From: Bacillota bacterium
GTDB lineage: Bacteria > Bacillota > Clostridia > Lachnospirales > Lachnospiraceae
NCBI GenBank assembly: GCA_023415475.1
Contig: JAEZKL010000130.1
Span: 27,529-91,528 of the forward strand
Length of the DNA: 64,000 nucleotides
Direction: 5' to 3'
Shown: piece by piece, positions 10,905 through 31,706 of the stretch
Position numbering within the stretch: the stretch's first letter is position 1
Layout: the number at the start of each line of letters is the position of its first letter
Notes under the pieces: generated by a model
Told to the model about the DNA's origin: nothing
Database searches by the model: none
What the model saw: the letters and a program-made list of their open reading frames with translations, nothing else
Translations under genes and position numbers: made by a program

Positions 10905-13595
10905 TTAAGCCATCTGTCTTCTGGCAAGGCTTGCAAAAACACCGTCCCTTTCCATCAGCTCCTGATATGTACCCTGCTCTACGATTCTTCCCTGATCCAT
11001 TACTAGAATCTTATTACAGTTTCTGATTGTGCTCAACCGATGAGCAATAACAATACGAGTTGATTTCAAGCTGTCCAGACTCCTGCTGACAATCGCCTGA
11101 GTAGTATTGTCCAAAGCGCTGGTAGCTTCGTCGAAATAAATAATCTTAGGCTTATTCACAATGGCTCTGGCAATCATGATACGCTGCTTCTGACCGCCGG
11201 ATATCGTGGAGGCTCCCTCACTGATTGTGGTGTGCATACCCATGGGCATCTCTTTGATATCTTCTTCAATCCCTGCCATTGCTGCCGCTTCCCAGGCATC
11301 ATCCATCGAAAGGTATGGGTTGGTTCCAACAATATTATTAAAGATGGACCCAGTCATTAGTTGACCATTCTGAAGTACCACTCCTAACTGCCTGCGTACG
11401 GCTCTGACATCCACTTTTGATAAATCCTTTCCGTTATAATAGACGTTGCCTGTCTCCGGAGTCTCAAATCCAAGCAAAATACGGAGCAAAGTCGATTTAC
11501 CACAACCGGAGGTACCAACCAAAGCAACATAGTCTCCTTCCTCAATACGGAATGAAATATCCTGCAGGACAAGCGGTCCGTCACTCTGATAACGAAAGGA
11601 AACATGACTGACTTCTATCTCACCAGTCAAAGTACCGGGAGACAGCTTATTATCATCGTCCTCTGGCAGAGTCTCCAGAATGGGCTTCGCCCTTTTATAC
11701 AGCGGAATTACCAAATTGGCTCCGATGATCGAATTAGCAAGACCGACTAAAGAAAGCATAAAGGATACAAAGGCGGAATAGAAACCGATAAATCTGCTAG
11801 CCGTCATAGTCGCTTCACCACTAGCCTGTATATAGAATATAATCATACCGGCAAATACAGGAAAAGCCGTATAAAATACCGCAAGCACATTAGATATTCT
11901 CTCCCTGCAAAGTGTCAATCTGCATTGTTCCTTGAATTCATTTGCCCAACGGGAGAAGGCTCTGCTTTGCGCACCGGCAATCTTTAATTTTGTTACACTG
12001 CCAATCAGTTGAACCAACAATCCCGTTATTTTGTTTGATGCAGCAAGAACCTTATGCTCATATTTTACCTTGCGGGCTGCCAGCAACGCCATAACCAGAA
12101 TAGACAAAAGGACCAGTAGAGCGGCAACCATGGCAAGCCTTGAATTATAGTAGAACAATACCACGAAGGTGAACACTGAAAAGACACCAGATAATATGGA
12201 ATTTAATGTAGTTCCTGAAAGTATCATACGAATTTGGCTGATTCCCATTGCACGCATAGCCAAATCACCGGAAGAAAATTGCTTATAAAAGGGTACCGGA
12301 AGACTAAGCAGGCGATCCCATACAGCAGCCTGAAGGGCTCCATCCATCCTACCCTCCATACGCTGGGTTGCCAATGCACGCGTTAATTGAAAAAGCATGG
12401 TTGCCAGTGCACTTACACAGAGTATTAATCCAATCTGCAACAGCGCACCTATATCCCCCTCCGGTATAACATAATCAAAGACTAATCCGGTGGCCAATGG
12501 TACTGCAGTACTCAGTATCCCCCCAAATGCACCCATAATAGCAATTCTAAAAAGATCCTGTTTCCAACAGCTTTGCACTCCAAAACTCATTAGTTCCTTT
12601 AAGCCTATCTTCTTCTGCTCAAATGGACGAAATAACACAACGCCCTCTTCTCTAATCTGGGATGCCACCTTCTTGTTAACAGGGCATTGATTGCCATATG
12701 TCGGGTCATATAGGATATAGCAGCTTGGTGTTCTAGGCAATAGAGCAACTGGTCTGCCGTCCTCCTTCATATAACCCAGAATAGGTCCTCCGTCCTGTTT
12801 ATACCACCTGCCGTTTAAGGCTATCTCTCTTGTACGGAAATGAGATGCCCTTGCAATCGCATTTAGTGTAAGCTCTTGTTCTTCCTTTCGAGAAGGCAAT
12901 AATATCTTCATCTTAAGACTCTGTCCAATCAGATTACAGACATCGGCAAGTGCATTACCGCTATCCTCATGAAGAACGGTCTTTTTCTCCTTCTGATTCA
13001 GGACCGTAAGCTGCTTCAGTGAGTTAGATATTAATCGTTGGTCATTTTCCTGTCTCCTCTTCCGTTGTATCTCTTCGTTCTCTCTTTGCTTTTTGCATCG
13101 CTCTGCCTGAGAACACAGAATCCTGCTGTGAAGGCTGTTTCTTATTTCTTTCTTCTTTATAAACTCTTCAATAATGATTCCTTCCTCCGCAGCAGCTATC
13201 TCATTGTCTGCCGCACCTCGCACACCTTCCGATATATGCTTCAACCAGTTTTGTGTCATCTGTGAAAGCTTTACTTTAACCTTCTCATCTGATACCCCAG
13301 CCAACCATAAGGTTTCTAACCGGATTAACACACAGTCAAGGGAAGGTGCAGCCTGAATCACCATTCCATGTTCCGCCATTTCATGTTCCATACCAAAAAG
13401 CAACTCTCCCGGACCGGCCTCAAACCAAAAATATCTTACTCCTGTTTCATTATCAGACCTTAAGGCCGACAAGAAAAATAAAGCCGTGCCCTCCAGGACA
13501 AGCCAGACATACTCCGGGTTATGAAGCAAGTGTACCATGTCCTCTTTATTATCGATTATCGTGCCTTCCTTTTGAAATATATCAAAAATATCCAT
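10905..13595 (-). CDS. NHLP-type bacteriocin export ABC transporter permease/ATPase subunit with an extra N-terminal domain (cNMP-binding-like)
   Basis: 896 aa. The C-terminal NBD has GTSGCGKST, LSGGQKQR and IIYFDEATSALD. A six-helix TMD precedes it. About 330 N-terminal residues come before the TMD. It is paired with the C39 ABC gene and the HlyD gene. Confidence 0.85.
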   Translation of the reverse strand: MDIFDIFQKEGTIIDNKEDMVHLLHNPEYVWLVLEGTALFFLSALRSDNETGVRYFWFEAGPGELLFGMEHEMAEHGMVIQAAPSLDCVLIRLETLWLAGVSDEKVKVKLSQMTQNWLKHISEGVRGAADNEIAAAEEGIIIEEFIKKKEIRNSLHSRILCSQAERCKKQRENEEIQRKRRQENDQRLISNSLKQLTVLNQKEKKTVLHEDSGNALADVCNLIGQSLKMKILLPSRKEEQELTLNAIARASHFRTREIALNGRWYKQDGGPILGYMKEDGRPVALLPRTPSCYILYDPTYGNQCPVNKKVASQIREEGVVLFRPFEQKKIGLKELMSFGVQSCWKQDLFRIAIMGAFGGILSTAVPLATGLVFDYVIPEGDIGALLQIGLILCVSALATMLFQLTRALATQRMEGRMDGALQAAVWDRLLSLPVPFYKQFSSGDLAMRAMGISQIRMILSGTTLNSILSGVFSVFTFVVLFYYNSRLAMVAALLVLLSILVMALLAARKVKYEHKVLAASNKITGLLVQLIGSVTKLKIAGAQSRAFSRWANEFKEQCRLTLCRERISNVLAVFYTAFPVFAGMIIFYIQASGEATMTASRFIGFYSAFVSFMLSLVGLANSIIGANLVIPLYKRAKPILETLPEDDDNKLSPGTLTGEIEVSHVSFRYQSDGPLVLQDISFRIEEGDYVALVGTSGCGKSTLLRILLGFETPETGNVYYNGKDLSKVDVRAVRRQLGVVLQNGQLMTGSIFNNIVGTNPYLSMDDAWEAAAMAGIEEDIKEMPMGMHTTISEGASTISGGQKQRIMIARAIVNKPKIIYFDEATSALDNTTQAIVSRSLDSLKSTRIVIAHRLSTIRNCNKILVMDQGRIVEQGTYQELMERDGVFASLARRQMA

Positions 13596-13643: not shown

Positions 13644-15818
13644 TTAACCTGTCTTAATCAGTTCGGTATAAACCCCGTTCTTTGCGTACAACTCATCATG
13701 TGTTCCACGTTCAACGATTTTTCCTTTATCAAGGAGAATAATCTCATCGCAATCTCGAATGGTACTGAGGCGATGCGCTATAATCAGACAGGTACACCCC
13801 CGCCGTCTGATATTCTCATCGACTGCTTTTTCCATCAACGGATCGAGCGCACTTGTCGCCTCATCAAGGATTAGTATCGATGGATTTCGCAGTAGCGCTC
13901 TGGCAATTTCAATACGCTGCCTCTGCCCACCACTAAAATTCTTACCTTCTTCTTCCATTCTTAGATCATAACCGCCGGAACGGGCAGTAATGTCCTCATG
14001 AATACAGGCATCCTTTGCTGCACGGATAAGCTCCTCCTCCCCCACAGTCTCATCCCATAAGGAAATATTATCGCGAATACTTTCCCGAAATATTCTGATA
14101 TCCTGGTCAACCATACACAGAGAATTGGTAATCACATACTGCTGCCACTCGGTTCGAGGCCGTCCATCCAGAAGTATTTCACCCGACCACGGCTGATAAA
14201 TACCAGCCAATAGCTTTGCTACGGTTGATTTACCGCTGCCGGAACCGCCTACCAGTGCCACTCGATTGCCCGGCTTAAGCTTTAGGCTGAAAATCTCGAT
14301 GAGTGGCGGATCCAGAGAACTATAACCAAAGGTAATGTCCTTAAGATCAACAAATCCCTCCAGTTTGTAGTCTTTCTCCTCCTGAACATCTGAGAGTTCT
14401 TCCGCCTTTGATATTTCGGTCTCTTTATTGTCAAAATCTATGGGATTTTTCATAACATCATCCAGTCGCTCGATTTCTCCTTCCACTTCCTGAAGCTCCG
14501 CTCCCAATCCGATGATCTCCTTCACCGGTGTCATAAAGCTTTCCATAAGACTTTGAAAGGCCACTAGCATACCAATTGTCATACTACCCCTGAGAATAAA
14601 ATATGCACCCATAATCAGTACGACCGCATTGTTAATACCGTTAAGGAATACCGGAAGCACCCCCAAATACTGAGAGGATACACCAAGCTTTTGCTCTGAA
14701 TTTAGAGCTTTTGCTTGATATCCTGACCATTTGGCAAAGAAATCAGATTCCGAGCCGGAGGCTTTTAATGTCTCAATAAGCTGTAAACCGTTCATGCCGG
14801 TAGCTATAAGCAGACCTCTGTCCTTTAACAACAAACTGTTACTATCCTTTCTATGATACGAGACCAGCTTAAGATAGAGAATATTGATAAGCGCGATAAC
14901 TGCTCCTACTGTAGCTAATACGATATTGTAGCGTAGCATCAGCAGAAAATAAAAAATAATCAAAACTAAATTTAACAATGCTGATGCAAGCTTGCCGGAC
15001 AGAAACTTTGCAACACGGTCATTACTCTGCATACGGGACGCAATATCCCCGACCACTCGTTGGTAGAAAAATACCGGTGGCAGCCTTAAGATATGCCATA
15101 AGAAGCGGCTTGAATTTGCGATTGCCAGTTTCATCTCCATCTTTAACAAAACATGTTTTTGCAGGAGGGTAAGTATCCCTCGAAATACGGCTGTTATTCC
15201 CATTCCCAACAGCAAGGGCATTACCCAGGAGGTTTTCCCGTCAAGAAGCACATCATCAACAAAGCTTCTTGTAAAGACAGGAAGTATCAATCCGGGAATG
15301 ACCATTGCCAATCCCACCAGCACCACATACAGTAAGGCTGCTTTCAAGCCGGACAGCCGATTCAGTAAGGTTGCTGCTATGCTGCTTTTCTTCCCTTCCT
15401 TCCGAAACTCTGTCGTAGGCTTAAATGACATTGTCACTCCCGTAAAGGATTGATTGAATTCCTCCTCTGTTACACTGCGTCGTCCTGAAGCAGGATCATT
15501 AATATAGAATTTGCTTTTCCCAATACCTTCAAGAACCATAAAATGACTGAAATTCCAATGGATGATTAGAGGTAATTGCATTTCCTTCAATTGACTTGGT
15601 TCCTTGCGATATCCCTTCGCCTCCAGATCGTAATGTCTTGCTGCTTTTAATATATTACTTGCTTTACTGCCATCGCGGGAAACACCGCATTCCACTCTTA
15701 CCTGCTCAAGTGGCACATATTTCCCGTAATATCTTAGAATCATGGTTAGTGAGGCTGCTCCGCATTCCGAGGCTTCCATCTGCAGAACAGTGGGAACCTT
15801 AACACGATACCTTCCCAT
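13644..15818 (-). CDS. NHLP-type bacteriocin export ABC transporter with an N-terminal C39 peptidase domain
   Basis: 724 aa. The C39 Cys motif is QMEASECGAASLTMILRYYG, with downstream HWNFSHFMVLEG and NDPASG (His/Asp). It also has a TMD and an NBD (GGSGSGKST, FSGGQRQR, ILILDEATSALD). Confidence 0.9.
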   Translation of the reverse strand: MGRYRVKVPTVLQMEASECGAASLTMILRYYGKYVPLEQVRVECGVSRDGSKASNILKAARHYDLEAKGYRKEPSQLKEMQLPLIIHWNFSHFMVLEGIGKSKFYINDPASGRRSVTEEEFNQSFTGVTMSFKPTTEFRKEGKKSSIAATLLNRLSGLKAALLYVVLVGLAMVIPGLILPVFTRSFVDDVLLDGKTSWVMPLLLGMGITAVFRGILTLLQKHVLLKMEMKLAIANSSRFLWHILRLPPVFFYQRVVGDIASRMQSNDRVAKFLSGKLASALLNLVLIIFYFLLMLRYNIVLATVGAVIALINILYLKLVSYHRKDSNSLLLKDRGLLIATGMNGLQLIETLKASGSESDFFAKWSGYQAKALNSEQKLGVSSQYLGVLPVFLNGINNAVVLIMGAYFILRGSMTIGMLVAFQSLMESFMTPVKEIIGLGAELQEVEGEIERLDDVMKNPIDFDNKETEISKAEELSDVQEEKDYKLEGFVDLKDITFGYSSLDPPLIEIFSLKLKPGNRVALVGGSGSGKSTVAKLLAGIYQPWSGEILLDGRPRTEWQQYVITNSLCMVDQDIRIFRESIRDNISLWDETVGEEELIRAAKDACIHEDITARSGGYDLRMEEEGKNFSGGQRQRIEIARALLRNPSILILDEATSALDPLMEKAVDENIRRRGCTCLIIAHRLSTIRDCDEIILLDKGKIVERGTHDELYAKNGVYTELIKTG

Positions 15819-15820
15819 CT

Positions 15821-16786
15821 CTACTGCACCCCTCTTTCCAGGCTGGGAATTACTTTCTCCAGTGGTCTTTCTCTACTGATTACAACTGCTCCCTGCACCA
15901 GCGTTCCACTGGAGATCGTAAAAGGTGGTCCGGAGGGAGAAGACCATTTAAAACCACTTACTGTATGAATATCTGTCGTTAAATCAATCTTAACCCGAAC
16001 CGGTATACCCATCTCACTAAGCTTTGCAACCAGTTCCTGACTGCCAAGTGTCTGAAGCATACTCTGCTCCGTTGCCGGGTATTCGTCAACAGATATCACT
16101 CTCCCTATCATAAACCCAAATTCTTCTTTATTTACAATACTAGGTATAATCTGTGCCTCCATACCGGATCTGATCCTTCCGCTCTGCTCAGCTGTTACAT
16201 ATAATACCGCCTCTAACCTGACCGTAGAATCATACTGCTCCAGAATCGCAAGAGCGTCTCCCTGTTTAATGACACTTCCTTTCTGAATATTAAGCTCCAT
16301 AATGCGTCCTGTTATCGGTGCAATAATTCTGGAGCGATAATCGAGCTCCTCCCTGAGCTGCTTTACCCTAGTCTGTGCCTCTGTAAATTCCTCTGCGCTT
16401 ACATTATTCGCTGCTTCCATCGAACTGAGTGTATCAATCAAACTATTAATTTGCTCCACCAGCTCCGGTTGTGCAACTCTTGCAATGACATCCCCTTTAT
16501 TCACCATGTCACCGTTTTCAAAACGAATATCCGTTACCTGCCCCATACTTTCGGAATTCAATGTATACACACCCGCATTATTTAATAGAATTCCGGTTCC
16601 CTCAATCTTCGTAATAATACTCCCCCTATAACCCCAGATCGCTGCACAGAATAAAATAAGACCGATAGCAACCAAAACTAGCCAGGCTTTGGGTGAGGTC
16701 AATCGAATTAACTGATCAAGCTGTTCCGGAGAGGAAAGCTTCTTTAATGATATTTCACGAAAGACAGTCCTTTTCATTCCAATCAC
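15821..16786 (-). CDS. HlyD-family secretion/adaptor protein of the NHLP bacteriocin system
   Basis: 321 aa. It has the KLSSPEQLDQLIRL signature, a single TM helix, and coiled-coil and barrel regions. It ends 2 nt before the C39 ABC gene start. Confidence 0.85.
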   Translation of the reverse strand: MIGMKRTVFREISLKKLSSPEQLDQLIRLTSPKAWLVLVAIGLILFCAAIWGYRGSIITKIEGTGILLNNAGVYTLNSESMGQVTDIRFENGDMVNKGDVIARVAQPELVEQINSLIDTLSSMEAANNVSAEEFTEAQTRVKQLREELDYRSRIIAPITGRIMELNIQKGSVIKQGDALAILEQYDSTVRLEAVLYVTAEQSGRIRSGMEAQIIPSIVNKEEFGFMIGRVISVDEYPATEQSMLQTLGSQELVAKLSEMGIPVRVKIDLTTDIHTVSGFKWSSPSGPPFTISSGTLVQGAVVISRERPLEKVIPSLERGVQ

Positions 16787-17949
16787 CTTTCCAGACGGCT
16801 AAATGATCCGTCTATAAGTTGCTTAATCACTATTAAATCTCCTGCTTCGTCGCCGGTTTCGGTAAATTCATGCACTCCGCATACACCCGTCCATTTCCCG
16901 AGCTCACGCAGTTTCTCCGCAACCTCCTCACGATTATTATTCTCAGTATTCTGTAAGGCGGCCGCCAAGATATGAACGGCATCATAGCCAAGTGCCGCAT
17001 AAGAATCGGGCTCCATCCCGTATTTATTAGCAAAATTGCGGGAAAAGCCTTTTGCCTGTTCGCTGGCAGCCGGGTCAAATACAGAACCAATCACGATGCT
17101 TGAATCCTGTTCTCCAATCAGGTTCGACAGCTGTGAGGAATCAAGTGCATTGCCTCCTATGAAAACTGTGTTAATCCCAATCTGTCCGGCATCATATATA
17201 AATTGCCCACCCTGGGATATTGCTGCCGCGACAAATATCCCATCATAGCCAAAGGCTCTCCACCTGTCCTTCAGACGGCTCAGCTCTTCTTCTCCGGCAT
17301 ACTCCGTAAAGCGATCAACTATGGTAATTCCATATCTTCGAAACTGATCCTCAACGGCATCCGCCAAACCCCTACCATAGGAATCATCGGAATAGTAAAT
17401 TACAATCCGCTTATGATTCATGTCAGCCAGAAATTCTGCTAATTTTTCTGCCAGAACAGCATCACTTGGAATGATCCGGAAAATATTTTGTTGATCTTTT
17501 TCGGTTAATTCCGGCGCAGTAGATGCAGGAGAAAGCATCACAAGATTTGCTTCCTTATAGATTGCAGATGCAGGCACTGAGATATAGGAGCTTTTATGTC
17601 CAATCACTGCCATTACTGTCTCACTATCCGACATACTTTGTGCGACAGCCAAGCCCTTAGTCGTCTCAGAAGCATCATCCGACTTCAGTAGTCGGAGTCT
17701 CTGCCCCCTTATCCCACCCTTCTCATTGATTTCTTCCACTGCCATGTCGATACCTTCTTCGAACAAACTAGTGTCGGATGCAAAGGGCCAAGCCACCCCC
17801 AGTGTAATTTCCTCCGTTTTGTTCGATATCTGCACACAGCTTGAAAGACTTAAGGTTATTATGATAACCGGAATGATTTTGATGACGAGCTGATCTATTT
17901 TTTTTATCATAACCTCATCCTTTCCTATGTTAAAACCATTATTTTGCAT
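16783..17949 (-). CDS. Periplasmic-binding-protein lipoprotein (LivK / Peripla_BP_6-like)
   Basis: 388-aa ORF. The likely start is ATG at 17910 (MIKKIDQ...). The lipobox is LSLSSC. The type-I PBP fold pattern includes GVAWPF...GIDMAVEEINEKGGIRGQRL. Its stop overlaps the HlyD start (ATGA at 16783-16786). Confidence 0.8.
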   Translation of the reverse strand: MQNNGFNIGKDEVMIKKIDQLVIKIIPVIIITLSLSSCVQISNKTEEITLGVAWPFASDTSLFEEGIDMAVEEINEKGGIRGQRLRLLKSDDASETTKGLAVAQSMSDSETVMAVIGHKSSYISVPASAIYKEANLVMLSPASTAPELTEKDQQNIFRIIPSDAVLAEKLAEFLADMNHKRIVIYYSDDSYGRGLADAVEDQFRRYGITIVDRFTEYAGEEELSRLKDRWRAFGYDGIFVAAAISQGGQFIYDAGQIGINTVFIGGNALDSSQLSNLIGEQDSSIVIGSVFDPAASEQAKGFSRNFANKYGMEPDSYAALGYDAVHILAAALQNTENNNREEVAEKLRELGKWTGVCGVHEFTETGDEAGDLIVIKQLIDGSFSRLER

Positions 17950-18000
17950 AGCTTCTCATTACTGAGCCGTTGTACGATAATACGCAGTGAGCTAAAAAGT

Positions 18001-18018
18001 ATTACATCATGATGTAAT
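18001..18018. promoter_or_regulatory. Perfect 18-bp palindrome in the divergent exporter/maturase intergenic region (candidate operator)
   Basis: The sequence is ATTACATCATGATGTAAT. It lies between the SBP-exporter operon start (17949/17910) and the radical SAM start (18172). Confidence 0.35.
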
Positions 18019-18171
18019 GAATTCATCAATCAAACGTATTAATTTACAATAGAAAGTACGTGTTGCGGAATTCTACAGACCCGAATGAAATATCATCCTG
18101 CTAAAAGCTTCATACGGAAGACAGACAGGTAATCGTTATCAAAAATATTATATAGAAAAGAGGATAAGAGA

Positions 18172-19557
18172 ATGGATACAAAAGAGTTACTGCCCTTCCA
18201 TCTGTTTCAATATAACGGTGAGCGTTATATGATCAATGTTGAAAAAATGCAGGCTGATACCATGGATCAACACTCCTATTCATATCTGGAGAAATTAGCA
18301 ATTGACGGCTACATGGCAGAATTACCACCGGATATGCAGTCAAAGCTAGAACACTATGGACTTCTCCCGACAGAAGGTACTAAAAGTAGACAGGTCCTCT
18401 CACCAAAGCATACACCTATCACTTATATGTCCCTTCTCGTTACCCAAGACTGTAATCTACGCTGCATCTATTGTTATGAGGATAAGACCAAGGCCAGAAT
18501 GGATGAGAAAACCGCCTTTCGGGCGGTGGACTGGTTAATCAGAAAATCGGAGAATATGCGGTCGATTCATATTGTTTTTTTTGGCGGTGAGCCTTTACTA
18601 AATTTTCCGTTAATGAAGGCAGTAGTTGAATATGCCAATGAAGCAGCGCACAAAGCCGGCAAACAGGCCACTTATTCCATTACAACCAATGGAACGCTAT
18701 TGGATGATGAGAAAAATCAGTTTTTTCTGAAGCACCAAATCAAAGTGATGATCAGCTTTGACGGACGAAAGGAGCTTCAGGATGTACAACGGCCATTTGC
18801 CTCGGGCTCAGGCTCCTATGACCTAATCTTGCCCAAAATTCATGATCTGCTGAAGCTTATGCCCCAGACTTCATGTCATGCAGTTGTCATGGGAAACACT
18901 TCTCCTGAGAAGGTAAAGGATGCATTGCAGGAGCTTGGTTTTCAACAGGTATCCGTAGCAATGAATTCCCAATCTCTGTTTACTCTCGACAGTCAGAAGG
19001 ATAAAGCATCGGACCGTGATATCCGGAGCATGATAAGCGCTCTGGAAGAGGAAGCGATAGTTTGGTACAATCGGATCATAGCTCGGGATACCGTTTCTAT
19101 AAATAAATTGACCGGAAGGAGCTATCTGTACCTGGCTCTGCGTTGCCTTTTAAATCATTCAATGAGAATATTTTTCTGCGGTGCCGGGAGGAGTATGGCC
19201 GCTGTTGCCCCCTCTGGGGATATCTATTTATGCCATCGCTTTGTCGGGCTGGATGATTACCGTATCGGTAGCATCGATGAGCATGATCTTAACCTAGAGA
19301 GCTTTAGTCAAAGCCCGGTTGAGGCAAATGCTATCTGTAACCGCTGTTTTGCCCGTTACTACTGCGGTGGTGGCTGTAAGCATGATCATGTCTCCTCTCG
19401 TGGCTACATCGATCAACCCGAAGAAGGAATGTGTCAGCTAAAACAGAGGGAACTTGAGCTGGCTGCCACAGTAGTCAGCAGGTTATCTCACGAGGACCGT
19501 AACTGGCTAGTCAAAGAGAAAATCTTTCCACCTAAGCCCTGCCCCCTGGATTTCTGA
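18172..19557 (+). CDS. Radical SAM/SPASM-domain peptide maturase (resembling the SCIFF maturase CteB and anSME)
   Basis: 461 aa. An N-terminal region of about 85 aa (FHLFQYNGERYMINVEKM...) resembles a peptide-recognition region. The CxxxCxxC motif lies in LVTQDCNLRCIYCY. The SPASM region contains CGAGRSMAAVAPSGDIYLCH and CNRCFARYYCGGGCKH. RBS: AAGAGGA. Confidence 0.9.
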   Translation: MDTKELLPFHLFQYNGERYMINVEKMQADTMDQHSYSYLEKLAIDGYMAELPPDMQSKLEHYGLLPTEGTKSRQVLSPKHTPITYMSLLVTQDCNLRCIYCYEDKTKARMDEKTAFRAVDWLIRKSENMRSIHIVFFGGEPLLNFPLMKAVVEYANEAAHKAGKQATYSITTNGTLLDDEKNQFFLKHQIKVMISFDGRKELQDVQRPFASGSGSYDLILPKIHDLLKLMPQTSCHAVVMGNTSPEKVKDALQELGFQQVSVAMNSQSLFTLDSQKDKASDRDIRSMISALEEEAIVWYNRIIARDTVSINKLTGRSYLYLALRCLLNHSMRIFFCGAGRSMAAVAPSGDIYLCHRFVGLDDYRIGSIDEHDLNLESFSQSPVEANAICNRCFARYYCGGGCKHDHVSSRGYIDQPEEGMCQLKQRELELAATVVSRLSHEDRNWLVKEKIFPPKPCPLDF

Positions 19558-19676: not shown

Positions 19677-19916
19677 TTACAAGTCAATCAGGCATCTAAC
19701 CGGAATTTCAATGATGCAGCCACCGGCAACAGCATCCAATTCCTTTTCATTCAACTCTGATCCGACTTCCTCAATCTCTTCCTTTGTAAAGGTATAGCCT
19801 GCCTGTACGACAAAATCCCTGCGAGCTGCCTTGTCCTCGAAGCTGTTCACCTTTTTGGCAAATGCCTCGTCAGTCTTAATTCTTTCCAGATACGCTTTTG
19901 CTAAATCAATACTCAT
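19677..19916 (-). CDS. Nif11-like leader RiPP precursor peptide
   Basis: 79 aa. The Nif11-type N-terminal domain is MSIDLAKAYLERIKTDEAFAKKVNSF...AGYTFTKEEIEEV. The double-glycine site is NEKELDAVAGG, followed by the core CIIEIPVRCLIDL. RBS: AAGGAGG. Confidence 0.85.
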   Translation of the reverse strand: MSIDLAKAYLERIKTDEAFAKKVNSFEDKAARRDFVVQAGYTFTKEEIEEVGSELNEKELDAVAGGCIIEIPVRCLIDL

Positions 19917-20004
19917 GGGTGATCCTCCTTATAATAATTAATTTTGTGCATCTATGATACACTTAAATGTTTACGATGCTTAATACGTAACTGCTCCCTA
20001 TGTA

Positions 20005-20403
20005 TTACATATTAATTTCATTTTTTCGAAACATGCAATCCGAAGTACAGCTTTGAAACGGGCAATTCGAATATAATCCGCAAGAAGCCTTCCACCCTAT
20101 CTCCGGTGAACCGGCTGACGCCATGGATAGTTCCTCATCCAAAAGCTCATCCTCATCCTTTAAAAGGTAATCCGTCGATAATCCTTTGTCTTTCTTACCC
20201 TGTGACAATATGATACTGATAAGCTGGCTTCTTAAGTGGTCCCTGACCTTGCTCCTTATACTAAAATCAACTTCAATCAACTTCTTTGCTGTGATTAGTA
20301 GCTCTCCGATTTCATCATCACGGATGATCCCGGGCACTTGATCTCCTGCCAGGATTTTGTCAAGATACTCGAGATACCACTCTGCTTTGGTTTTCTCAGT
20401 CAT
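20005..20403 (-). CDS. Soluble anti-sigma-like protein with a Cys-rich C-terminal tail (possible second RiPP substrate)
   Basis: 132 aa. It overlaps the sigma gene by 8 nt. The N-terminus (YLEYLDKILAGDQVP...DDEIGELLITAKKLIEVDFS) resembles anti-sigma N-terminal regions found next to Firmicute ECF sigma genes. No TM helix is present. The C-terminus is LLDEELSMASAG followed by SPEIGWKASCGLYSNCPFQSCTSDCMFRKNEINM. Confidence 0.6.
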   Translation of the reverse strand: MTEKTKAEWYLEYLDKILAGDQVPGIIRDDEIGELLITAKKLIEVDFSIRSKVRDHLRSQLISIILSQGKKDKGLSTDYLLKDEDELLDEELSMASAGSPEIGWKASCGLYSNCPFQSCTSDCMFRKNEINM

Positions 20404-20971
20404 CCATATTTACCCCCTGATGCTCCATAAAATTCCGCATGCGCCGCATAGTCCTAAACAGGATAACTCCGATATTATTTTCGCTTAAGCCGGTAACTTT
20501 CGCTATTTCACGATTGGTCATGCCGCTCCAGAATTTTAAGGCGATGAGATCTCTTTCCCTATCGGTTAAAAACGTCAATGCCCTTTTCAACTGCTGCCTG
20601 ACCTCATTATATTCAGCTATGTCTACCGGGCTTAAACCGGGAGCCACAATATCTTCTATCGTCTCCAGAGGAGTATGGATATTGCGTTCCCGCCTGCGGT
20701 AATAATCGGTTACCGCATTACGGGCGATGCTGAAAACCCACGCAAAAAGCGGTGCTTTATCCGCAGAATAAAAACTGCGCTTCTCAAAAAGCTTATAAAA
20801 AATCATACTGGTTAAATCGTCCGCATCACTATAATTACTAACCCGATAGCAAACATAGTTGTAGATCCTCGGAAAATATTCATTATAAAATTCAGTAAAA
20901 TCAAAATCAGATTTATATGTAGTGTCAGTAAACGTCTGCTCTTGCAACTGTATCGGCATGATTATCCCCAC
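20396..20971 (-). CDS. ECF-type sigma-70 family RNA polymerase sigma factor
   Basis: 191 aa (GTG at 20971 or ATG at 20959). Region 2 reads YFPRIYNYVCYRV...DDLTSMIFYKLF. Region 4 reads LTDRERDLIALKFWSGMTNREIAKVTGLSENNIGVILFRTMRRMR. Confidence 0.85.
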   Translation of the reverse strand: MGIIMPIQLQEQTFTDTTYKSDFDFTEFYNEYFPRIYNYVCYRVSNYSDADDLTSMIFYKLFEKRSFYSADKAPLFAWVFSIARNAVTDYYRRRERNIHTPLETIEDIVAPGLSPVDIAEYNEVRQQLKRALTFLTDRERDLIALKFWSGMTNREIAKVTGLSENNIGVILFRTMRRMRNFMEHQGVNMDD

Positions 20972-21133
20972 TTCCCCCTGACAGCACCACCTGCACTTCC
21001 CCTTATCGGGAGCACTATGGCAGAGAAACTGCTGTCGATTCGGTATAGCACTTAATAAATTGACATTTTTCTTACTGTTATGATTAATTCTAGCATCATA
21101 ACAAATGTTTCAACAATGTACGCAGGGACAGTT

Positions 21134-21179
21134 TAAAAAAAATAAAAGTACAGTCTTTTTAATAAAAGACTGTACTTTT
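21134..21179 (-). terminator. Rho-independent terminator after the response regulator gene
   Basis: The minus strand reads AAAAGUACAGUCUUUU, loop, AAAAGACUGUACUUUU, followed by AUUUUUUUU. Confidence 0.7.
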
Positions 21180-21230
21180 AGACAGTTTACATTAGCCTAT
21201 TGAATACTCTTAGCGGTAGCTCAATAAGCA

Positions 21231-21929
21231 CTATTCATTACGTATTAACCCTTTCTGGGCAGCATACAAAATCGCTTGTGATTTATTCTCCAGATGCAAC
21301 ATATCCAGTAATCTGCTTATGTGGTACTTAATCGTGCGCTCGCTAAGCCCCAATCTTTCACCGACTTCTTTATAGGTTGCACCTTGTGCAATCAGCTCCA
21401 ATACCTCAATCTGCCGCTCGGTTAGTTCAGACTTCTCTGTTTTACACTTGTTCTGTGTTAAGCAATCGTTTATTCCTTTGCCTCGTTTGAATTCCATTAC
21501 CAATTTGGTGGCCAAACCCTGAGACAACGGCATTTCACCCTTCTCAACGGACTCTAGATATTCCACCAGCTTTTTCGCATCGGTATCCTTAAGCAGATAA
21601 CCGGAAGCACCATATTTGATTGCATTGAATAAATCCTCATCGTCATCCGAGGTGGTAAGCATAACCAGTTTAATCTCCGGAAGCTCTTCATGAATCCGTT
21701 TTACCGCTTCCAGACCGTTACAGCCCGGCATTTTGATATCCATTAGTATAATATCCGGCTTTAACTTATGAGCCATTACGGCTGCTTCATTACCATTCCT
21801 AGCCCTTCCTACTACTTCAACACCGAAGGTTTCTAATAAATACTGAAGACCCTCTAAAAACAAAGAGTGATCATCCACCAGCATTACTTTCATATTCATT
21901 CGTATCATCTTCCCCCTTCCTGGGCACAT
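21231..21929 (-). CDS. LuxR/NarL-family response regulator
   Basis: The receiver domain has MKVMLVDDHS...ILMDIKMPGCNG. The C-terminal HTH has LTERQIEVLELIAQGATYKEVGERLGLSERTIKYHISRL. The true start is probably ATG near 21893-21908, because the ORF overlaps the kinase 3' end. Confidence 0.9.
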   Translation of the reverse strand: MCPGRGKMIRMNMKVMLVDDHSLFLEGLQYLLETFGVEVVGRARNGNEAAVMAHKLKPDIILMDIKMPGCNGLEAVKRIHEELPEIKLVMLTTSDDDEDLFNAIKYGASGYLLKDTDAKKLVEYLESVEKGEMPLSQGLATKLVMEFKRGKGINDCLTQNKCKTEKSELTERQIEVLELIAQGATYKEVGERLGLSERTIKYHISRLLDMLHLENKSQAILYAAQKGLIRNE

Positions 21930-23610
21930 ATAACGTAACCTTGCTCCCCTTATCCGGTACGGATTCGATTGTAATATATCCGCCGATTAATGCTGCCCTC
22001 TCCTTCATAATATCCAAGCCGAATTTGTTCTTTACCGAGTCATCTTTATGAACTGCATGGAAACCCTTGCCGTCGTCAGCAATCGAGACGGTCATCTGCT
22101 TATCCTCTACTTGAAATGAGATGATAACCTCATGTGCCTGTGCATGTTTTCTGATGTTATTCATAGCCTCACGTATTATATTTTGAATGTTTACCTTAAC
22201 GGACATATTAAATTCTTTCTCTATTGAATCCTCCAAAATATCCAGCTTTACCTTCAAGCCAGTCTGCTGCTCAAAATTCATAATATCATTTTTTAAGGAG
22301 GTGATAAAATCTCTCTCCGTGATCACCGATGTTCTGACACTGGAGATATACTCTCTTATCTCTGCATGCATATTCTGTGTGACCTTAATTAATCGATCCA
22401 GTTTATCATACACAAGATCGATTCCCTCATTTACCAGCTCCTGACGGATCGCCTGGGCTTGCAAATTAATAAATCCCAGCACCTGTCCCAGATTGTCATG
22501 CAAATCTCTGCTTATTCTTTCTCTTTCATCAATGACTGCCAATTGCCATTGCTGCTTTAGAAACTCCTGTTGCGCCTGCTTTTTCTCTGTTATATCATGA
22601 AGTACTGCCAGACGACCTATGTAATAATCCTTTTTATCATATAGAGGAATAAGTAATATTTCAAAAACTCTTGTCTCTTTCTCCCCTGTTATGGAAAAAT
22701 CGGTATGAGAGGCTCTTCCATCTTTTATGATACGGACTAACTCCGGTATTGCCATACATACCTCATCAATTGACAATAGATAATATTTTTGTACCGAGAT
22801 ACCTATAATTCTTTTGAATGCCGGATTCATATCCAGTATCCTGTCCCGTATATCCAATACCATAACTCCTGCATCCATGGCTTCAATTATGGCTGTCCGT
22901 GCCAAAGGAACCAGTTCAAACATCCTGTTGTGGAAGATAGACCACAGCATCATAACACCTGCCGGACCGAAAAACAAAGGCGTGATATCATACTGTAATG
23001 GACTGATTCCGATAATGTAGATAAGGTTCGGAATTATGATAAAGCTTGTTCCAATGAGTAGATAGCTTGCTTGCTTTTTATAAACTGATCTCTTCGCTAA
23101 TGCTGTACGTAATAATACAGCAACAGCCCACAGGTTCAGACAGTGGGAATATGCTGCATGAATATAGAACCAACCTCCGTACTTTTTTGCTATCACATAA
23201 AACGCCCCGCTATACGCCAAATGGACATCATACCGAATCAGACCGTGCAACTGATTAGTCCAGACCAAAATAAGCGAAATGCAGGGCAAAACAAAGAGCC
23301 ATTTTAATTTATTCTTATGTTCTTTATAGCTGTGACCGGTCGCTTCCATGCAAAGGATAAGTAGGGAAACCGGGGAGAAGCAATATGCAATATACTGCAT
23401 ATTAGCCCAAAACAGCTTAACCGATAAATCTACAGCCGCCATTTCCAGAGCATTGGGAATAGACCAGAAGGTGACAATAAACATGCTTAGAGCAAAAAAC
23501 TCTACGCCTTGTGCTTTTCTACGTTTTATCTGCGCAAAGATACCCAACGATAAAGTGAGTAAGCCTGAAATCGACAAAGGCCATATGATCGGAATATATT
23601 GATAATTCAT
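21871..23610 (-). CDS. Sensor histidine kinase (N-terminal 7TM region, PAS, HisKA_3, HATPase)
   Basis: 579 aa. About seven N-terminal TM helices are followed by a PAS-like region, an H-box (RERISRDLHDNLGQ) and G-boxes (DDGKGF, GLDIMKERAALIGG). Confidence 0.85.
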   Translation of the reverse strand: MNYQYIPIIWPLSISGLLTLSLGIFAQIKRRKAQGVEFFALSMFIVTFWSIPNALEMAAVDLSVKLFWANMQYIAYCFSPVSLLILCMEATGHSYKEHKNKLKWLFVLPCISLILVWTNQLHGLIRYDVHLAYSGAFYVIAKKYGGWFYIHAAYSHCLNLWAVAVLLRTALAKRSVYKKQASYLLIGTSFIIIPNLIYIIGISPLQYDITPLFFGPAGVMMLWSIFHNRMFELVPLARTAIIEAMDAGVMVLDIRDRILDMNPAFKRIIGISVQKYYLLSIDEVCMAIPELVRIIKDGRASHTDFSITGEKETRVFEILLIPLYDKKDYYIGRLAVLHDITEKKQAQQEFLKQQWQLAVIDERERISRDLHDNLGQVLGFINLQAQAIRQELVNEGIDLVYDKLDRLIKVTQNMHAEIREYISSVRTSVITERDFITSLKNDIMNFEQQTGLKVKLDILEDSIEKEFNMSVKVNIQNIIREAMNNIRKHAQAHEVIISFQVEDKQMTVSIADDGKGFHAVHKDDSVKNKFGLDIMKERAALIGGYITIESVPDKGSKVTLYVPRKGEDDTNEYESNAGG

Positions 23611-29382: not shown

Positions 29383-29631
29383 ATGAGTGCATCAGCGTCT
29401 ATAAAGCTTTGCGACGATGCCATAAAGACAGTATCAGCAATCCGCTCCAAGCTTGGTGCTGCTCAAAACCGCTTAGAACACACTATAGCGAACCTGGATA
29501 ATACCGCTGAGAATCTGCAAAGTTCTGAAAGCATAATTCGCGATACTGATATCGCTAAGGCAATGGTCGAATATGTGAAAGCAAGTATCTTAGAACAGAT
29601 TGGGCAGGCAATGCTATCTCAAACAAATAAG
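29383..29631 (+). pseudogene. Flagellin C-terminal domain remnant
   Basis: The translation is DDAIKTVSAIRSKLGAAQNRLEHTIANLDNTAENLQSSESIIRDTDIAKAMVEYVKASILEQIGQAMLSQTNK, which covers the conserved flagellin C-terminal helices. The N-terminal domain, the variable domain and the last approximately 10 residues are absent. Confidence 0.75.
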
Positions 29632-29674
29632 GTAAGGATAACAGCATTCCATAATGCATATTATCCTTACCTTA
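29620..29674 (-). terminator. Hairpin terminator after MCP 29715-31706
   Basis: The minus strand reads UAAGGUAAGGAUAA, loop, UUAUCCUUACCUUA, followed by UUUGUUUG. Confidence 0.55.
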
Positions 29675-29714
29675 GCTATTTATTGATATTCTACGACTGG
29701 CTCTTTCTCTCTTC

Positions 29715-31706
29715 TTACATCTTAAACTTTGATATGGATTTTTGCATGTCTTCTGCTAATCCGGACAGGCTCTCACTGGAGTTTGCAATCTCATTCATGG
29801 ATGAGGTTTGCTCTTCAATCGACGCGGTAGCCTCCTGCGTACCTGCTGCATTCTCCTCAGAGATAGCAGACAGATTCTGAATAATACCTACGATTTCATC
29901 CTTTTTGTTACCCATTTCCTTGCTTTGCTGATTCAGATAGTGAATTAATTTCTTTAGGTTTTCAATTGCTGCTGCGATACCCTCGAATTTCGTATTGGTA
30001 AAGTCAACACTGCTAGTCTGCTCTTTGAGGTTCTCACCGACCTCTGACATTGCTTGTACTGCATATTGACTCTTTCCGGTCAGCTCCTCAATATCCTTTA
30101 TGATCTCTCCGGCAAAACGATTGGTCTGCTCTGCCAGCTTTCTTATTTCATCGGCCACTACTGCAAAGCCCTTTCCCTGCTCTCCGGCTCTTGCCGCCTC
30201 AATTGCTGCATTCAAGGCTAACAGATTCGTCTGACTGGCGATATTTAATATCATCTGGCTGGCATTATCAATCTTATTTGCACTTTCGTTTGTTTCCAGG
30301 ATGACATTACGTATCTCTGTCGCTGTCTTATTCGTGATATCAGTCTTCTGTATCAAGACAGTAAGAACATCAAGGCCTTCGCTCTTTTGTCTCTCCACTT
30401 CATCGGCCAGTCCGTTCAATTCTACAATAAGCTTCTGATCCTTCTCAATCAAGTCACCTAAGAGTTCGATTTCACCAGCACCCTTTTCGGTATCACTCGC
30501 CTGATCAGCAGCTCCCATAGCAATATCCTGTACTGCACTGGCTACTTCGTTTGCACTTTCTGCCGCTTGCTGAGTTGTTGCAGTAAGCTCCTCTGAGGCT
30601 GCCGCTATATGCTCAGCCGATTGAGCGATACTCTCAATCAAAGTTCTTAAGTTATCCTGAAGGACCAGGGTTGCATTAGCCATGATCCCTATTTCATCCG
30701 CTCGATTGAGGTACTTATTTGCTTTGTCATTATTCTCAGTAGTCATATCATATTGGGACATGCTGTTTAATAAATCAACCACATGGGTGATGGGCTTCGA
30801 TATTGATCTGCCAAGAAGAAAAGCAATCACTACACCGGCAGCAATGAATATCACCGAGAACACAACTAATAATAAAGTCATTTTATTGATCTCACTGGTA
30901 ATCTGATTCTTAGGCGCCTTCAGGGCTAATACCCAGTCTGTATTCGGTATCATGGTAAGAGATGCTACGAACTCTACACCCCTCAGGTTGTAGCGTATAT
31001 TTCCTTCCTTTCTAACCCTGAATCCATCGAATTTGATACCAAAGTCTTTAAACTCTCCATTTTCCTCAATATCTTTAATTACATTTCTTTGCTCCATTAC
31101 GATCGTTTTATCATCGTGAGCATAAAATGTTCCGTCATTTCCAAGAATGAAGGCACTACCCTCTTCTCCGAAGGTCATACTATAGATGATTTCATTTAAA
31201 GCTGAACCATCTCTTCGTCCAATGAGTGCACCAATAATCTCATCGCCTGATTTAATTGGTGATGCATACATAATAACGGTACTATTGGTTACTTTACTGA
31301 CCAATACATCAGAAAAGCATGCTTGACCCAATAACGCTTTTTGTATATATTCTCGCTCGCTCAGATCCGCTTCCTCTCCACCGATTGCATACCTTGCAAT
31401 ACCTTCCGGGTTAACCACAGCCATATCAAGATATCCCAGTTCTTCGGCTTCTTTCGCCAGGATTTCCAACTGCTCCTCCAATGGCAGACCGCTAATTCGA
31501 TTAGCAACCTGCCTCAATACCTCGGTTCGCAGCTGCAAACGGGCGTTTACATAATTCGCTCCCTGGATCGAGGCTTCCTTCAGTCCGTCTTCCACTTCAT
31601 GAAAAGCCGTATTATGGCCTAATACAATTGATATTGTACCTAAACCACCAGTAACTAATAAAACAAGTACTCCGACAAATAGCGCAATTCTATTTGACAA
31701 TTTCAT
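29715..31706 (-). CDS. Methyl-accepting chemotaxis protein (Cache-type extracellular sensor, HAMP, MCP signalling domain)
   Basis: 663 aa. Two TM helices flank a sensor domain of about 260 aa. The signalling hairpin is [34 protein letters not shown]. Confidence 0.9.

Follow-up and report, generated by a model that had tools for sequence, protein, structure and literature searches.

A candidate anti-sigma factor from a new protein family, soluble and with a leader-like fourth helix, in a Nif11-type radical SAM peptide cluster of Bacillota

The window analysed here is a stretch of 64,000 nucleotides (nt) of contig JAEZKL010000130.1 from a bacterium of the Bacillota, and our subject is an open reading frame (ORF) on its minus strand (20005–20403) that overlaps the gene for a sigma factor of the extracytoplasmic function (ECF) type. 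The ORF, its ribosome-binding site, its overlap with the sigma gene, its substitution pattern and its homologs together describe a putative soluble anti-sigma factor of 132 amino acids (aa) that belongs to a new family. The ATG start codon lies within the final codons of the sigma ORF (20396–20971), so that 8 nt, ATGACTGA, are shared, and a Shine-Dalgarno sequence, AGGGGG, is found about 9 nt 5' of the start. The ratio of nonsynonymous to synonymous substitution rates (dN/dS) indicated purifying selection over the whole ORF, with values of 0.19 against the related locus L002 and 0.28 against L001. The N-terminal part gave 0.15–0.20 and a short motif near the C-terminus about 0.07, while a linker (residues 71–85) was near 1 against L002 and the C-terminal tail gave 0.23 against L002 and 0.85 against L001. 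The ORF is a real gene under constraint.

The encoded protein has no transmembrane segment, the highest Kyte-Doolittle mean over 19 residues being 0.76. Neither HxxxCxxC nor CxxC was found by regular-expression search, all Cys residues falling within positions 108–123, and by the same search the protein lacks the signature of the zinc-binding anti-sigma (ZAS) subclass. Its C-terminus consists of DELLDEELSMASAG followed by a 34-aa tail, SPEIGWKASCGLYSNCPFQSCTSDCMFRKNEINM, with Cys at 108, 114, 119 and 123 and the sequence CTSD. Counted back from G98, the residues before the tail are L at −12, E at −8, L at −7, A at −4, A at −2 and G at −1. The same register is seen in the neighbouring peptide precursor, where SELNEKELDAVAGG is followed by the cut and then by C. 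A first-pass annotation of the window had described this ORF by its 8-nt overlap, the missing transmembrane segment and HxxxCxxC motif, the 34-aa tail with four Cys and CTSD, and the leader register, and all of these are present in the sequence.

No more than two close relatives came from a word-indexed search; they are 88% and 64% identical and lie in syntenic loci. Exhaustive HMMER searching together with a profile search enlarged the family to about 45 proteins of 95–132 aa, from uncultured Bacillota, Clostridia and Peptococcaceae and from Desulfosporosinus orientis DSM 765. None of them carries a name or an assigned Pfam domain. The N-terminal part has no sequence match in Pfam, NCBIfam or the PDB, and these searches did not bear out the first-pass claim that this half resembles known anti-sigma N-termini. 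Seventeen genomic contexts were examined, for two of which (L003 and L006) cluster membership was taken from leader and promoter scans and not from a full gene list. In every context that retains upstream sequence the family gene lies directly 3' of the orthologous sigma gene, and wherever the 3' end of the sigma gene could be read it abuts or overlaps that gene, which bears out the earlier remark that the gene occupies the usual anti-sigma position. The overlap is at least 8 nt in most of these loci; at L016 the two genes abut with no overlap. Fifteen of the 17 contexts place the family gene within one type of cluster, comprising a Nif11-leader precursor, a radical S-adenosylmethionine (SAM) maturase and an exporter with a C39 peptidase domain. 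Long contigs show one or two Nif11 precursors, the maturase gene on the opposite strand, and then genes for a solute-binding protein (SBP), an HlyD-type adaptor, a C39 peptidase-containing ATP-binding cassette (ABC) exporter (PCAT) and a second exporter subunit (ABC2); short contigs show parts of this order. The family is unannotated and restricted to Nif11-leader/radical SAM peptide clusters of Bacillota, and the 132-aa protein is its founding example.

The only exceptions to this association are two decayed loci. In D. orientis DSM 765 (CP003108; L013, 9442–10288) an orphan sigma gene and a 95-aa family member stand beside a gene for a MalT-like STAND regulator; within 10 kb of them there is neither a promoter motif nor a gene for a precursor, maturase or exporter. 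The family protein there stops 8 residues past AAG, and the pair is more likely the remnant left by a deletion within a cluster; we therefore gave it little weight. The pair was also considered as proof that the motif works apart from an exporter, and was rejected as such in view of its 8-residue end after AAG and the lack of a promoter motif nearby. The second locus (L019, 8001–9434), from a metagenome-assembled genome of the Syntrophomonadaceae, is a decayed cluster in which the family gene (P0040) has lost its N-terminal part, radical SAM sequence survives as two fragments and ABC sequence as one C-terminal fragment; two intact promoter motifs persist despite the decay.

Residues 1–70 (20194–20403, minus strand) form the putative sigma4-binding bundle, with three helices predicted by AlphaFold2 at 3–18, 30–46 and 52–70 and with family conservation summarized by the consensus M.EK.KA.iYL.YLD.ILAGE.... 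They are followed by an acidic linker (residues 71–85; 20149–20193, minus strand), which varies in length and sequence across the family alignment and is modelled with low confidence (predicted local distance difference test score, pLDDT, below 50 at residues 72–83). Models were obtained for the window protein (pLDDT 64) and for P0032, a member of clade B (pLDDT 71). Both contain helices at 3–18, 30–46/48 and 51/52–66/70, a disordered linker and a short helix over the conserved motif, which in the window protein covers residues 89–96. The class I anti-sigma domain (ASDI) is a three-helix bundle with a flexible linker and a helix 4, and about a third of ASDI proteins are soluble (PMC7406223). 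Compared at the level of secondary-structure topology, and with moderate confidence, both models appear to match this layout of three helices, flexible linker and fourth helix.

The 34-aa tail (residues 99–132; 20008–20109, minus strand) has its four Cys in the arrangement C-x5-CPF-x2-C-x3-C, and these are unchanged in the three homologs closest to it and line up with Cys residues in P0004. In about 26 family members the tail instead reads CPxCG-x9-12-CxxC and contains no conserved acidic residue; these members have the two-knuckle CxxC...CxxC pattern that the window protein lacks. Weak matches to the Pfam zinc ribbon models Zn_ribbon_3, Zn_Ribbon_1 and DZR were obtained for 8–10 of 28 members. 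The modelled clade-B tail is a beta hairpin (pLDDT ~80) that superposes on RanBP2-type and ribosomal zinc ribbons with a root mean square deviation of 0.6–0.9 Å over 21–23 residues, at Foldseek E-values of at least 1, the domain being very small. The four members of the window's clade (P0001–P0004) keep CG...CP(F/Y), with the Cys re-spaced to C-x5-C-x4-C-x3-C and with a clade-specific C-x-x-D-C. Five further members have no tail Cys or end 5–10 residues past AAG, among them P0006, which nevertheless lies beside a Nif11 precursor. From this alignment and family comparison the window tail probably descends from a C-terminal zinc ribbon and would be a variable accessory module, metal-binding or sensory. 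Metal binding is put forward tentatively for the window tail, since it has no CxxC pair and its Cys are spaced by 5, 4 and 3 residues.

The first-pass annotation had taken the tail for the core of a second leader-and-core peptide, with C-x-x-D as a unit shared with the core of the true precursor. On this account residues 1–98 would serve as a long leader and the 34-aa tail as the core, the radical SAM enzyme would crosslink it (for example Cys119 to Asp122), and the exporter would cut after AG and secrete it. Several features agree with such a precursor: the leader-like motif stands immediately before the tail, the tail Cys and C-x-x-D-C are conserved in the window's four-member clade, the real core has both C-x-x-E and C-x-x-D, and the tail evolves fast against L001, as cores do. 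Across the family, however, a conserved pairing of Cys donor and acidic acceptor is lacking, C-x-x-D being restricted to tails of the window's small clade, and most members appear to carry a standard zinc ribbon with no acidic acceptor at all. At L018 the rings of the real core are of the form C-x3-D, yet C-x-x-D persists in the tail, so that the tail motif does not track the ring size of the core. The residue at −2 is Ala in 29 of 30 members and not Gly, and the 132-aa protein contains no PF07862, Nif11 or NHLP leader domain by Pfam and NCBIfam. Furthermore, the family gene is always coupled to the sigma gene, whereas each true precursor has its own promoter. The tail looks like a zinc ribbon in most members, is re-spaced in the window's clade and is devoid of Cys in five others. 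It therefore does not qualify as a conserved core peptide, and we regard a second precursor as very improbable.

A profile search with the C-terminal module (motif plus tail) for Nif11 or further leaders with such a core returned only P0040 (the truncated member from the decayed cluster), generic zinc ribbons and, at a non-significant E-value of 1.9, P0044. The latter (L020, 182–406) is a peptide of 74 aa; its leader, LEELTEEELTQVVGG, is of the textbook GG kind, its core includes C..C and CPYCG, and two unannotated genes come after it. It shows that Cys cores of this kind exist behind true GG leaders; its context is uninformative.

Between linker and tail lies the most conserved element of the family, a short helix 4 with a leader-like motif (residues 86–98, ELLDEELSMASAG; 20110–20148, minus strand), recognized by its invariant columns, the predicted helix, its low dN/dS and its profile alignment with leaders. 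The family consensus is E-L-x-[DE]-[DE]-x-L-x-x-[VA]-A-A-[GA], and column counts were taken over 30 full-length members. E at −13 (E86), L at −12 (L87) and L at −7 (L92) are invariant (30/30 each). Positions −10 and −9 are nearly always D or E, and −8 is D or E in 21 members. At −4 there are 16 V, 12 A (the window protein among them) and 2 T, and −3 is Ala in 21. At −2, Ala is present in 29 of the 30 (A97 in the window protein) and Gly only in P0013; at −1 there are 20 Gly and 10 Ala. The family thus shares with double-glycine leaders the residues at −12, −7 and −4 on a short helix, and departs from them in lacking Gly at −2. The leader register noted in the first-pass annotation was therefore confirmed, and of the two elements whose conservation it had proposed to follow in homologs, the EL....L..(V/A)A(A)(G/A) motif is kept and the Cys-rich tail is not kept family-wide.

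The resemblance to leaders was examined with profiles. When the family was aligned by hhalign with the Nif11 precursors of the same loci, the single local match was the helix-4 motif, ending on the Gly of the cleavage site (P = 3.9e-4, probability 36%), and no similarity was seen beyond these 17 residues. A hidden Markov model (HMM) of the last 13 or 16 leader residues was scanned over 2,691 ORFs of the window and the related loci. True precursors ranked first and family members immediately after them, mostly through alignments to the ELTEEEL half, and the window's own clade received no score. The curated leader models TIGR01847, TIGR03798 and TIGR03793 did not match the window protein at E ≤ 1; all three matched the true precursor at this threshold, TIGR03798 alone above its cut-off. 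A kinship of the N-terminal part with the Nif11 domain itself ('AKAYLERI' against 'KAEWYLEYL') was ruled out by hhalign. An apparent co-variation of helix 4 with the cognate leader (LTEEEL with LTDEEL; LLDEEL with LNEKEL) was set aside, as it comes from two clades only. At L010 (1227–1920) the family protein has an extra small residue (ASAAG) and the neighbouring precursor an extra Gly (VAGGG), a single case that may be coincidence.

These data bear on a reading in which helix 4 of the anti-sigma factor also mimics the end of a leader, so that the C39 peptidase or the leader-binding domain of the maturase competes with sigma for it. In C39 domains the peptidase makes a 'hydrophobic knot' with L-12 and L-7 of the leader, and specificity is tuned by position −4 (PMC6363468; PMC6959990). 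The two knot residues are invariant in the family, −4 is V, A or T, and −3 is mostly Ala. The active-site cleft of C39 domains is too narrow for anything except the double-glycine motif (PMC6959990), and with Ala at −2 helix 4 would therefore be cleaved poorly or not at all. The sigma2-binding helix would in this case be a non-cleavable mimic of an export leader and the exporter peptidase domain an anti-anti-sigma factor, with idle exporters freeing sigma and precursor-saturated ones allowing it to be bound again, a scheme that we hold to be doubtful. Sigma activity would then track free exporter capacity, as export of FlgM reports completion of the flagellum's hook-basal body. The helix-4 motif is the sole profile–profile match between family and precursors, family members directly follow the true precursors in the HMM scan, and the family occurs only with the PCAT-containing cluster type apart from the two decayed exceptions. 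The statistics are nevertheless modest, as the hhalign probability and the clade missed by the leader HMM indicate, and acidic amphipathic helices with small terminal residues are common. A conserved helix 4 is moreover expected of any class I anti-sigma domain (PMC7406223), the co-variation of motif and leader comes down to two clades, and there is no experimental precedent. We consider leader mimicry unlikely on these grounds. The first-pass annotation had joined sigma antagonism to maturation in a feed-forward switch, with modification or cleavage of the protein releasing sigma. As maturation of a core this idea did not survive, and only in the modified form of binding or mimicry does it stand; cleavage after AG would leave all four anti-sigma helices intact, and hence would not obviously free sigma by itself.

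The neighbourhood of the ORF is, by its gene content, a complete Nif11-type peptide cluster. The product of the sigma gene (20396–20971, minus strand) has Sigma70_r2 and Sigma70_r4_2 domains and matches TIGR02937 above the cut-off and TIGR02952 below it (137.6 bits). On the other side of the 132-aa ORF lies the gene for a Nif11-leader precursor of a ribosomally made, post-translationally modified peptide (RiPP; 19677–19916, minus strand), recognized by PF07862 and TIGR03798, both above cut-off, with a leader ending in ...ELDAVAGG and the core CIIEIPVRCLIDL. The maturase gene (18172–19557, plus strand) encodes a Nif11-like peptide radical SAM/SPASM maturase (TIGR04064, 551.5 bits against a cut-off of 518.7), for which the PapB and SCIFF maturases are the next-best NCBIfam families. 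The export operon, on the minus strand, begins with a Peripla_BP_6 SBP gene (16783–17949; PF13458) and continues with genes for an HlyD-type adaptor (15821–16786; TIGR03794, 333 bits), the PCAT (13644–15818; TIGR03796, 1090 bits, and a match to PF03412) and the second exporter subunit, NHLM ABC2 (10905–13595; TIGR03797, 946.9 bits). The N-terminal domain of the PCAT contains Q..C, H and D residues that, by eye, resemble the C39 catalytic set.

The SBP gene was present in every related locus that reaches into the export operon, with no matching permease genes nearby; its product, of the Leu/Ile/Val type, could act in export or as the mature peptide's receptor. In the second ABC subunit (10905–13595, minus strand), residues 1–210 are an N-terminal extension outside the TIGR03797 model with no Pfam match. 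Elsewhere in the window, an ORF at 29383–29880 (plus strand) opens with sequence resembling the C-terminal domain of flagellin (...AAQNRLEHTIANLDNTAENL...LSQTNK), continues as unrelated sequence, and may be a gene fragment or a mis-delimited ORF.

A two-component system lies 5' of the sigma operon (21231–23610, minus strand), its ORFs encoding a HisKA_7TM-type kinase (21871–23610) and a LuxR-type response regulator (21231–21929), with the domains assigned from syntenic loci. A strong terminator with a 17-bp stem (21143–21180) separates it from the sigma operon. HisKA_7TM kinase and LuxR response regulator genes are found 5' of the sigma operon in L001, L002, L016 and L017. In L018 and L013 a divergently transcribed gene for a MalT-like STAND protein takes this place, and in L004–L007 an HtpG-like gene precedes the sigma operon and no dedicated regulator is adjacent. 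The core of sigma, anti-sigma and three promoters is constant across lineages despite these different upstream regulators.

An alignment of eight loci revealed a conserved TGTAAT-N16-CGTAT in the spacer between the 132-aa ORF and the precursor gene, with the form of an ECF-type −35/−10 pair. TGTAAT-N15-17-CGTA has exactly three matches in the window against 0.30 expected, and none of 100 shuffled sequences reached three. All three take the form TGTAAT-N16-CGTA of an ECF-type promoter. One precedes the precursor gene (19984–20009, minus strand), its −35 element overlapping the stop codon of the 132-aa ORF, and is conserved in related loci; one precedes the SBP-HlyD-PCAT-ABC2 operon (17981–18006, minus strand); and one precedes the maturase gene (18013–18038, plus strand). 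Related clusters that are complete carry a copy of the motif in front of every precursor gene as well as in front of the maturase gene and the export operon; truncated loci have fewer. The decayed loci differ, the D. orientis remnant having none and L019 two. Over 44 hits the consensus is TGTAATA-N15-CGTATTAA. The motif and its placement were observed directly, and from them we infer that the ECF sigma factor of the cluster uses it. Since the export operon lies behind the same putative sigma-dependent promoter, a feedback loop of the kind that leader mimicry calls for would be possible. The sigma operon itself has no TGTAAT-N16-CGTA motif, and the sigma factor therefore appears not to be autoregulated. 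The region 5' of the sigma gene (20972–21230, minus strand; alignment A6) contains, common to L001, L002, L008 and L010, a conserved ACTGT-N-GTACATTGT element and sigma-70-like hexamers after the terminator. The ACTGT-N-GTACATTGT element could be a candidate binding site for the LuxR-type response regulator.

The reading that we favour, and judge somewhat likelier to be right than wrong, is that the 132-aa ORF encodes a soluble, cluster-specific protein that acts as the cognate anti-sigma factor, represents a new family and has a tail derived from a zinc ribbon. Sigma and anti-sigma factor would be made together from the overlapping genes once an upstream regulator, in the window the two-component system, switches on their operon. 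As position and predicted topology suggest, the three N-terminal helices and helix 4 would hold the sigma factor. From the three TGTAAT-N16-CGTA promoters, freed sigma would transcribe the genes for precursor and maturase as well as the SBP-HlyD-PCAT export operon, and the anti-sigma factor would set the threshold for activation. The Cys4 tail would act as an accessory module, probably metal-binding or sensory, and not as a second core.

Several results weigh against this reading. The window protein has no Pfam or NCBIfam hit at E ≤ 1, and no anti-sigma family was among the Pfam matches listed for 28 family members at E ≤ 10. A PDB profile search at E ≤ 10 returned no anti-sigma chain; all it produced were short segments resembling zinc knuckles, from ovomucoid and ribosomal proteins for example. 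When the first 68 residues served as a profile query meant to reach annotated anti-sigma factors, the matches were family members only. Foldseek gave no match for the helical part of either the window model or P0032, and the models themselves are of moderate confidence only (pLDDT 64–71; predicted template modelling score, pTM, 0.32–0.37). Furthermore, the reading leaves as coincidence, or as shared helix grammar, both the in-register likeness of helix 4 to a leader end and the strict co-occurrence with a C39 exporter, and it does not explain the trigger that releases sigma. Because the tests of sequence membership failed, the protein was not filed in any described anti-sigma family; the anti-sigma assignment follows from gene position, coupling and predicted topology, and homology is not its basis.

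The missing sequence link to any anti-sigma family and the low pTM of the models would also fit a protein that is not an inhibitor. It would then be an accessory associated with sigma, for instance a positive co-factor, an adaptor for the maturase or a redox- or metal-sensing partner, with helices that merely look anti-sigma-like. Gene order, the sigma overlap, protein size and the layout of four helices are, however, each what one expects of a sigma/anti-sigma pair, and we think a non-inhibitory role improbable.

Our literature searches found no description of this sigma/anti-sigma pair or of anti-sigma factors with double-glycine or leader-like motifs, and bacteriocin, radical SAM and Nif11 contexts go unmentioned in the main text of the ECF reclassification paper. 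How anaerobic Bacillota regulate their radical SAM peptide clusters is, to our knowledge, largely uncharted, and many of these clusters stay silent in heterologous hosts. The circuit proposed here is compact, with one ECF sigma factor, one small soluble partner and three promoters of clear consensus, and could serve to activate the cluster. With it comes a putative anti-sigma family that is absent from present domain libraries. If helix 4 does engage the exporter or the maturase, this would be a new route of anti-sigma inactivation, through mimicry of a secretion signal. Leader mimicry, if true, would show how a cell matches precursor supply to export capacity. Transcription of precursor, maturase and exporter would be tied to that capacity, in a FlgM-like checkpoint for a RiPP pathway.

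The closest comparison is to anti-sigma factors of class I (for example the N-terminal domains of RsrA, RsiW, ChrR and RseA). The family resembles them in having its gene directly 3' of, and overlapping, an ECF sigma gene and, in models of moderate confidence, in the predicted order of three helices, flexible linker and fourth helix. It differs in having no detectable sequence similarity to them and no HxxxCxxC zinc site, in carrying its Cys4 site in a separate, putative C-terminal zinc ribbon, and in a helix 4 that is the best conserved part and leader-like. Zinc ribbons (Zn_ribbon_3, Zn_Ribbon_1 and DZR; RanBP2-type and ribosomal) are matched by most family tails in CPxCG...CxxC, in weak model matches and in a modelled beta hairpin, whereas the window protein is without a CxxC pair.

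The double-glycine leaders of PCAT substrates (Nif11, NHLP, class II bacteriocin and lanthipeptide) have E/L at −13/−12, an acidic run, L at −7, V/A at −4, A at −3 and small residues at −2/−1, as the family motif does, and a C39 exporter is encoded in the same cluster. Unlike these leaders, the family has Ala at −2 in 29 of 30 members, its motif follows an 85-aa sigma-coupled domain, and a putative zinc ribbon or almost nothing comes behind it. FlgM is an anti-sigma-28 factor exported by the flagellar apparatus. For leader mimicry it offers the likeness of a soluble anti-sigma factor whose removal by an export machine reports the readiness of that machine, although there is no homology, the export system is different, and the 132-aa protein is linked to its exporter by sequence resemblance only. 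MibX/MibW and PspX/PspW are ECF sigma/anti-sigma pairs that control the lantibiotics microbisporicin and planosporicin. MibW and PspW are actinomycete membrane proteins thought to sense the product outside, while the 132-aa protein is soluble, comes from Bacillota and belongs to an unrelated family; what it would share with them is a cluster-situated ECF sigma/anti-sigma pair that drives the promoters of a RiPP cluster.

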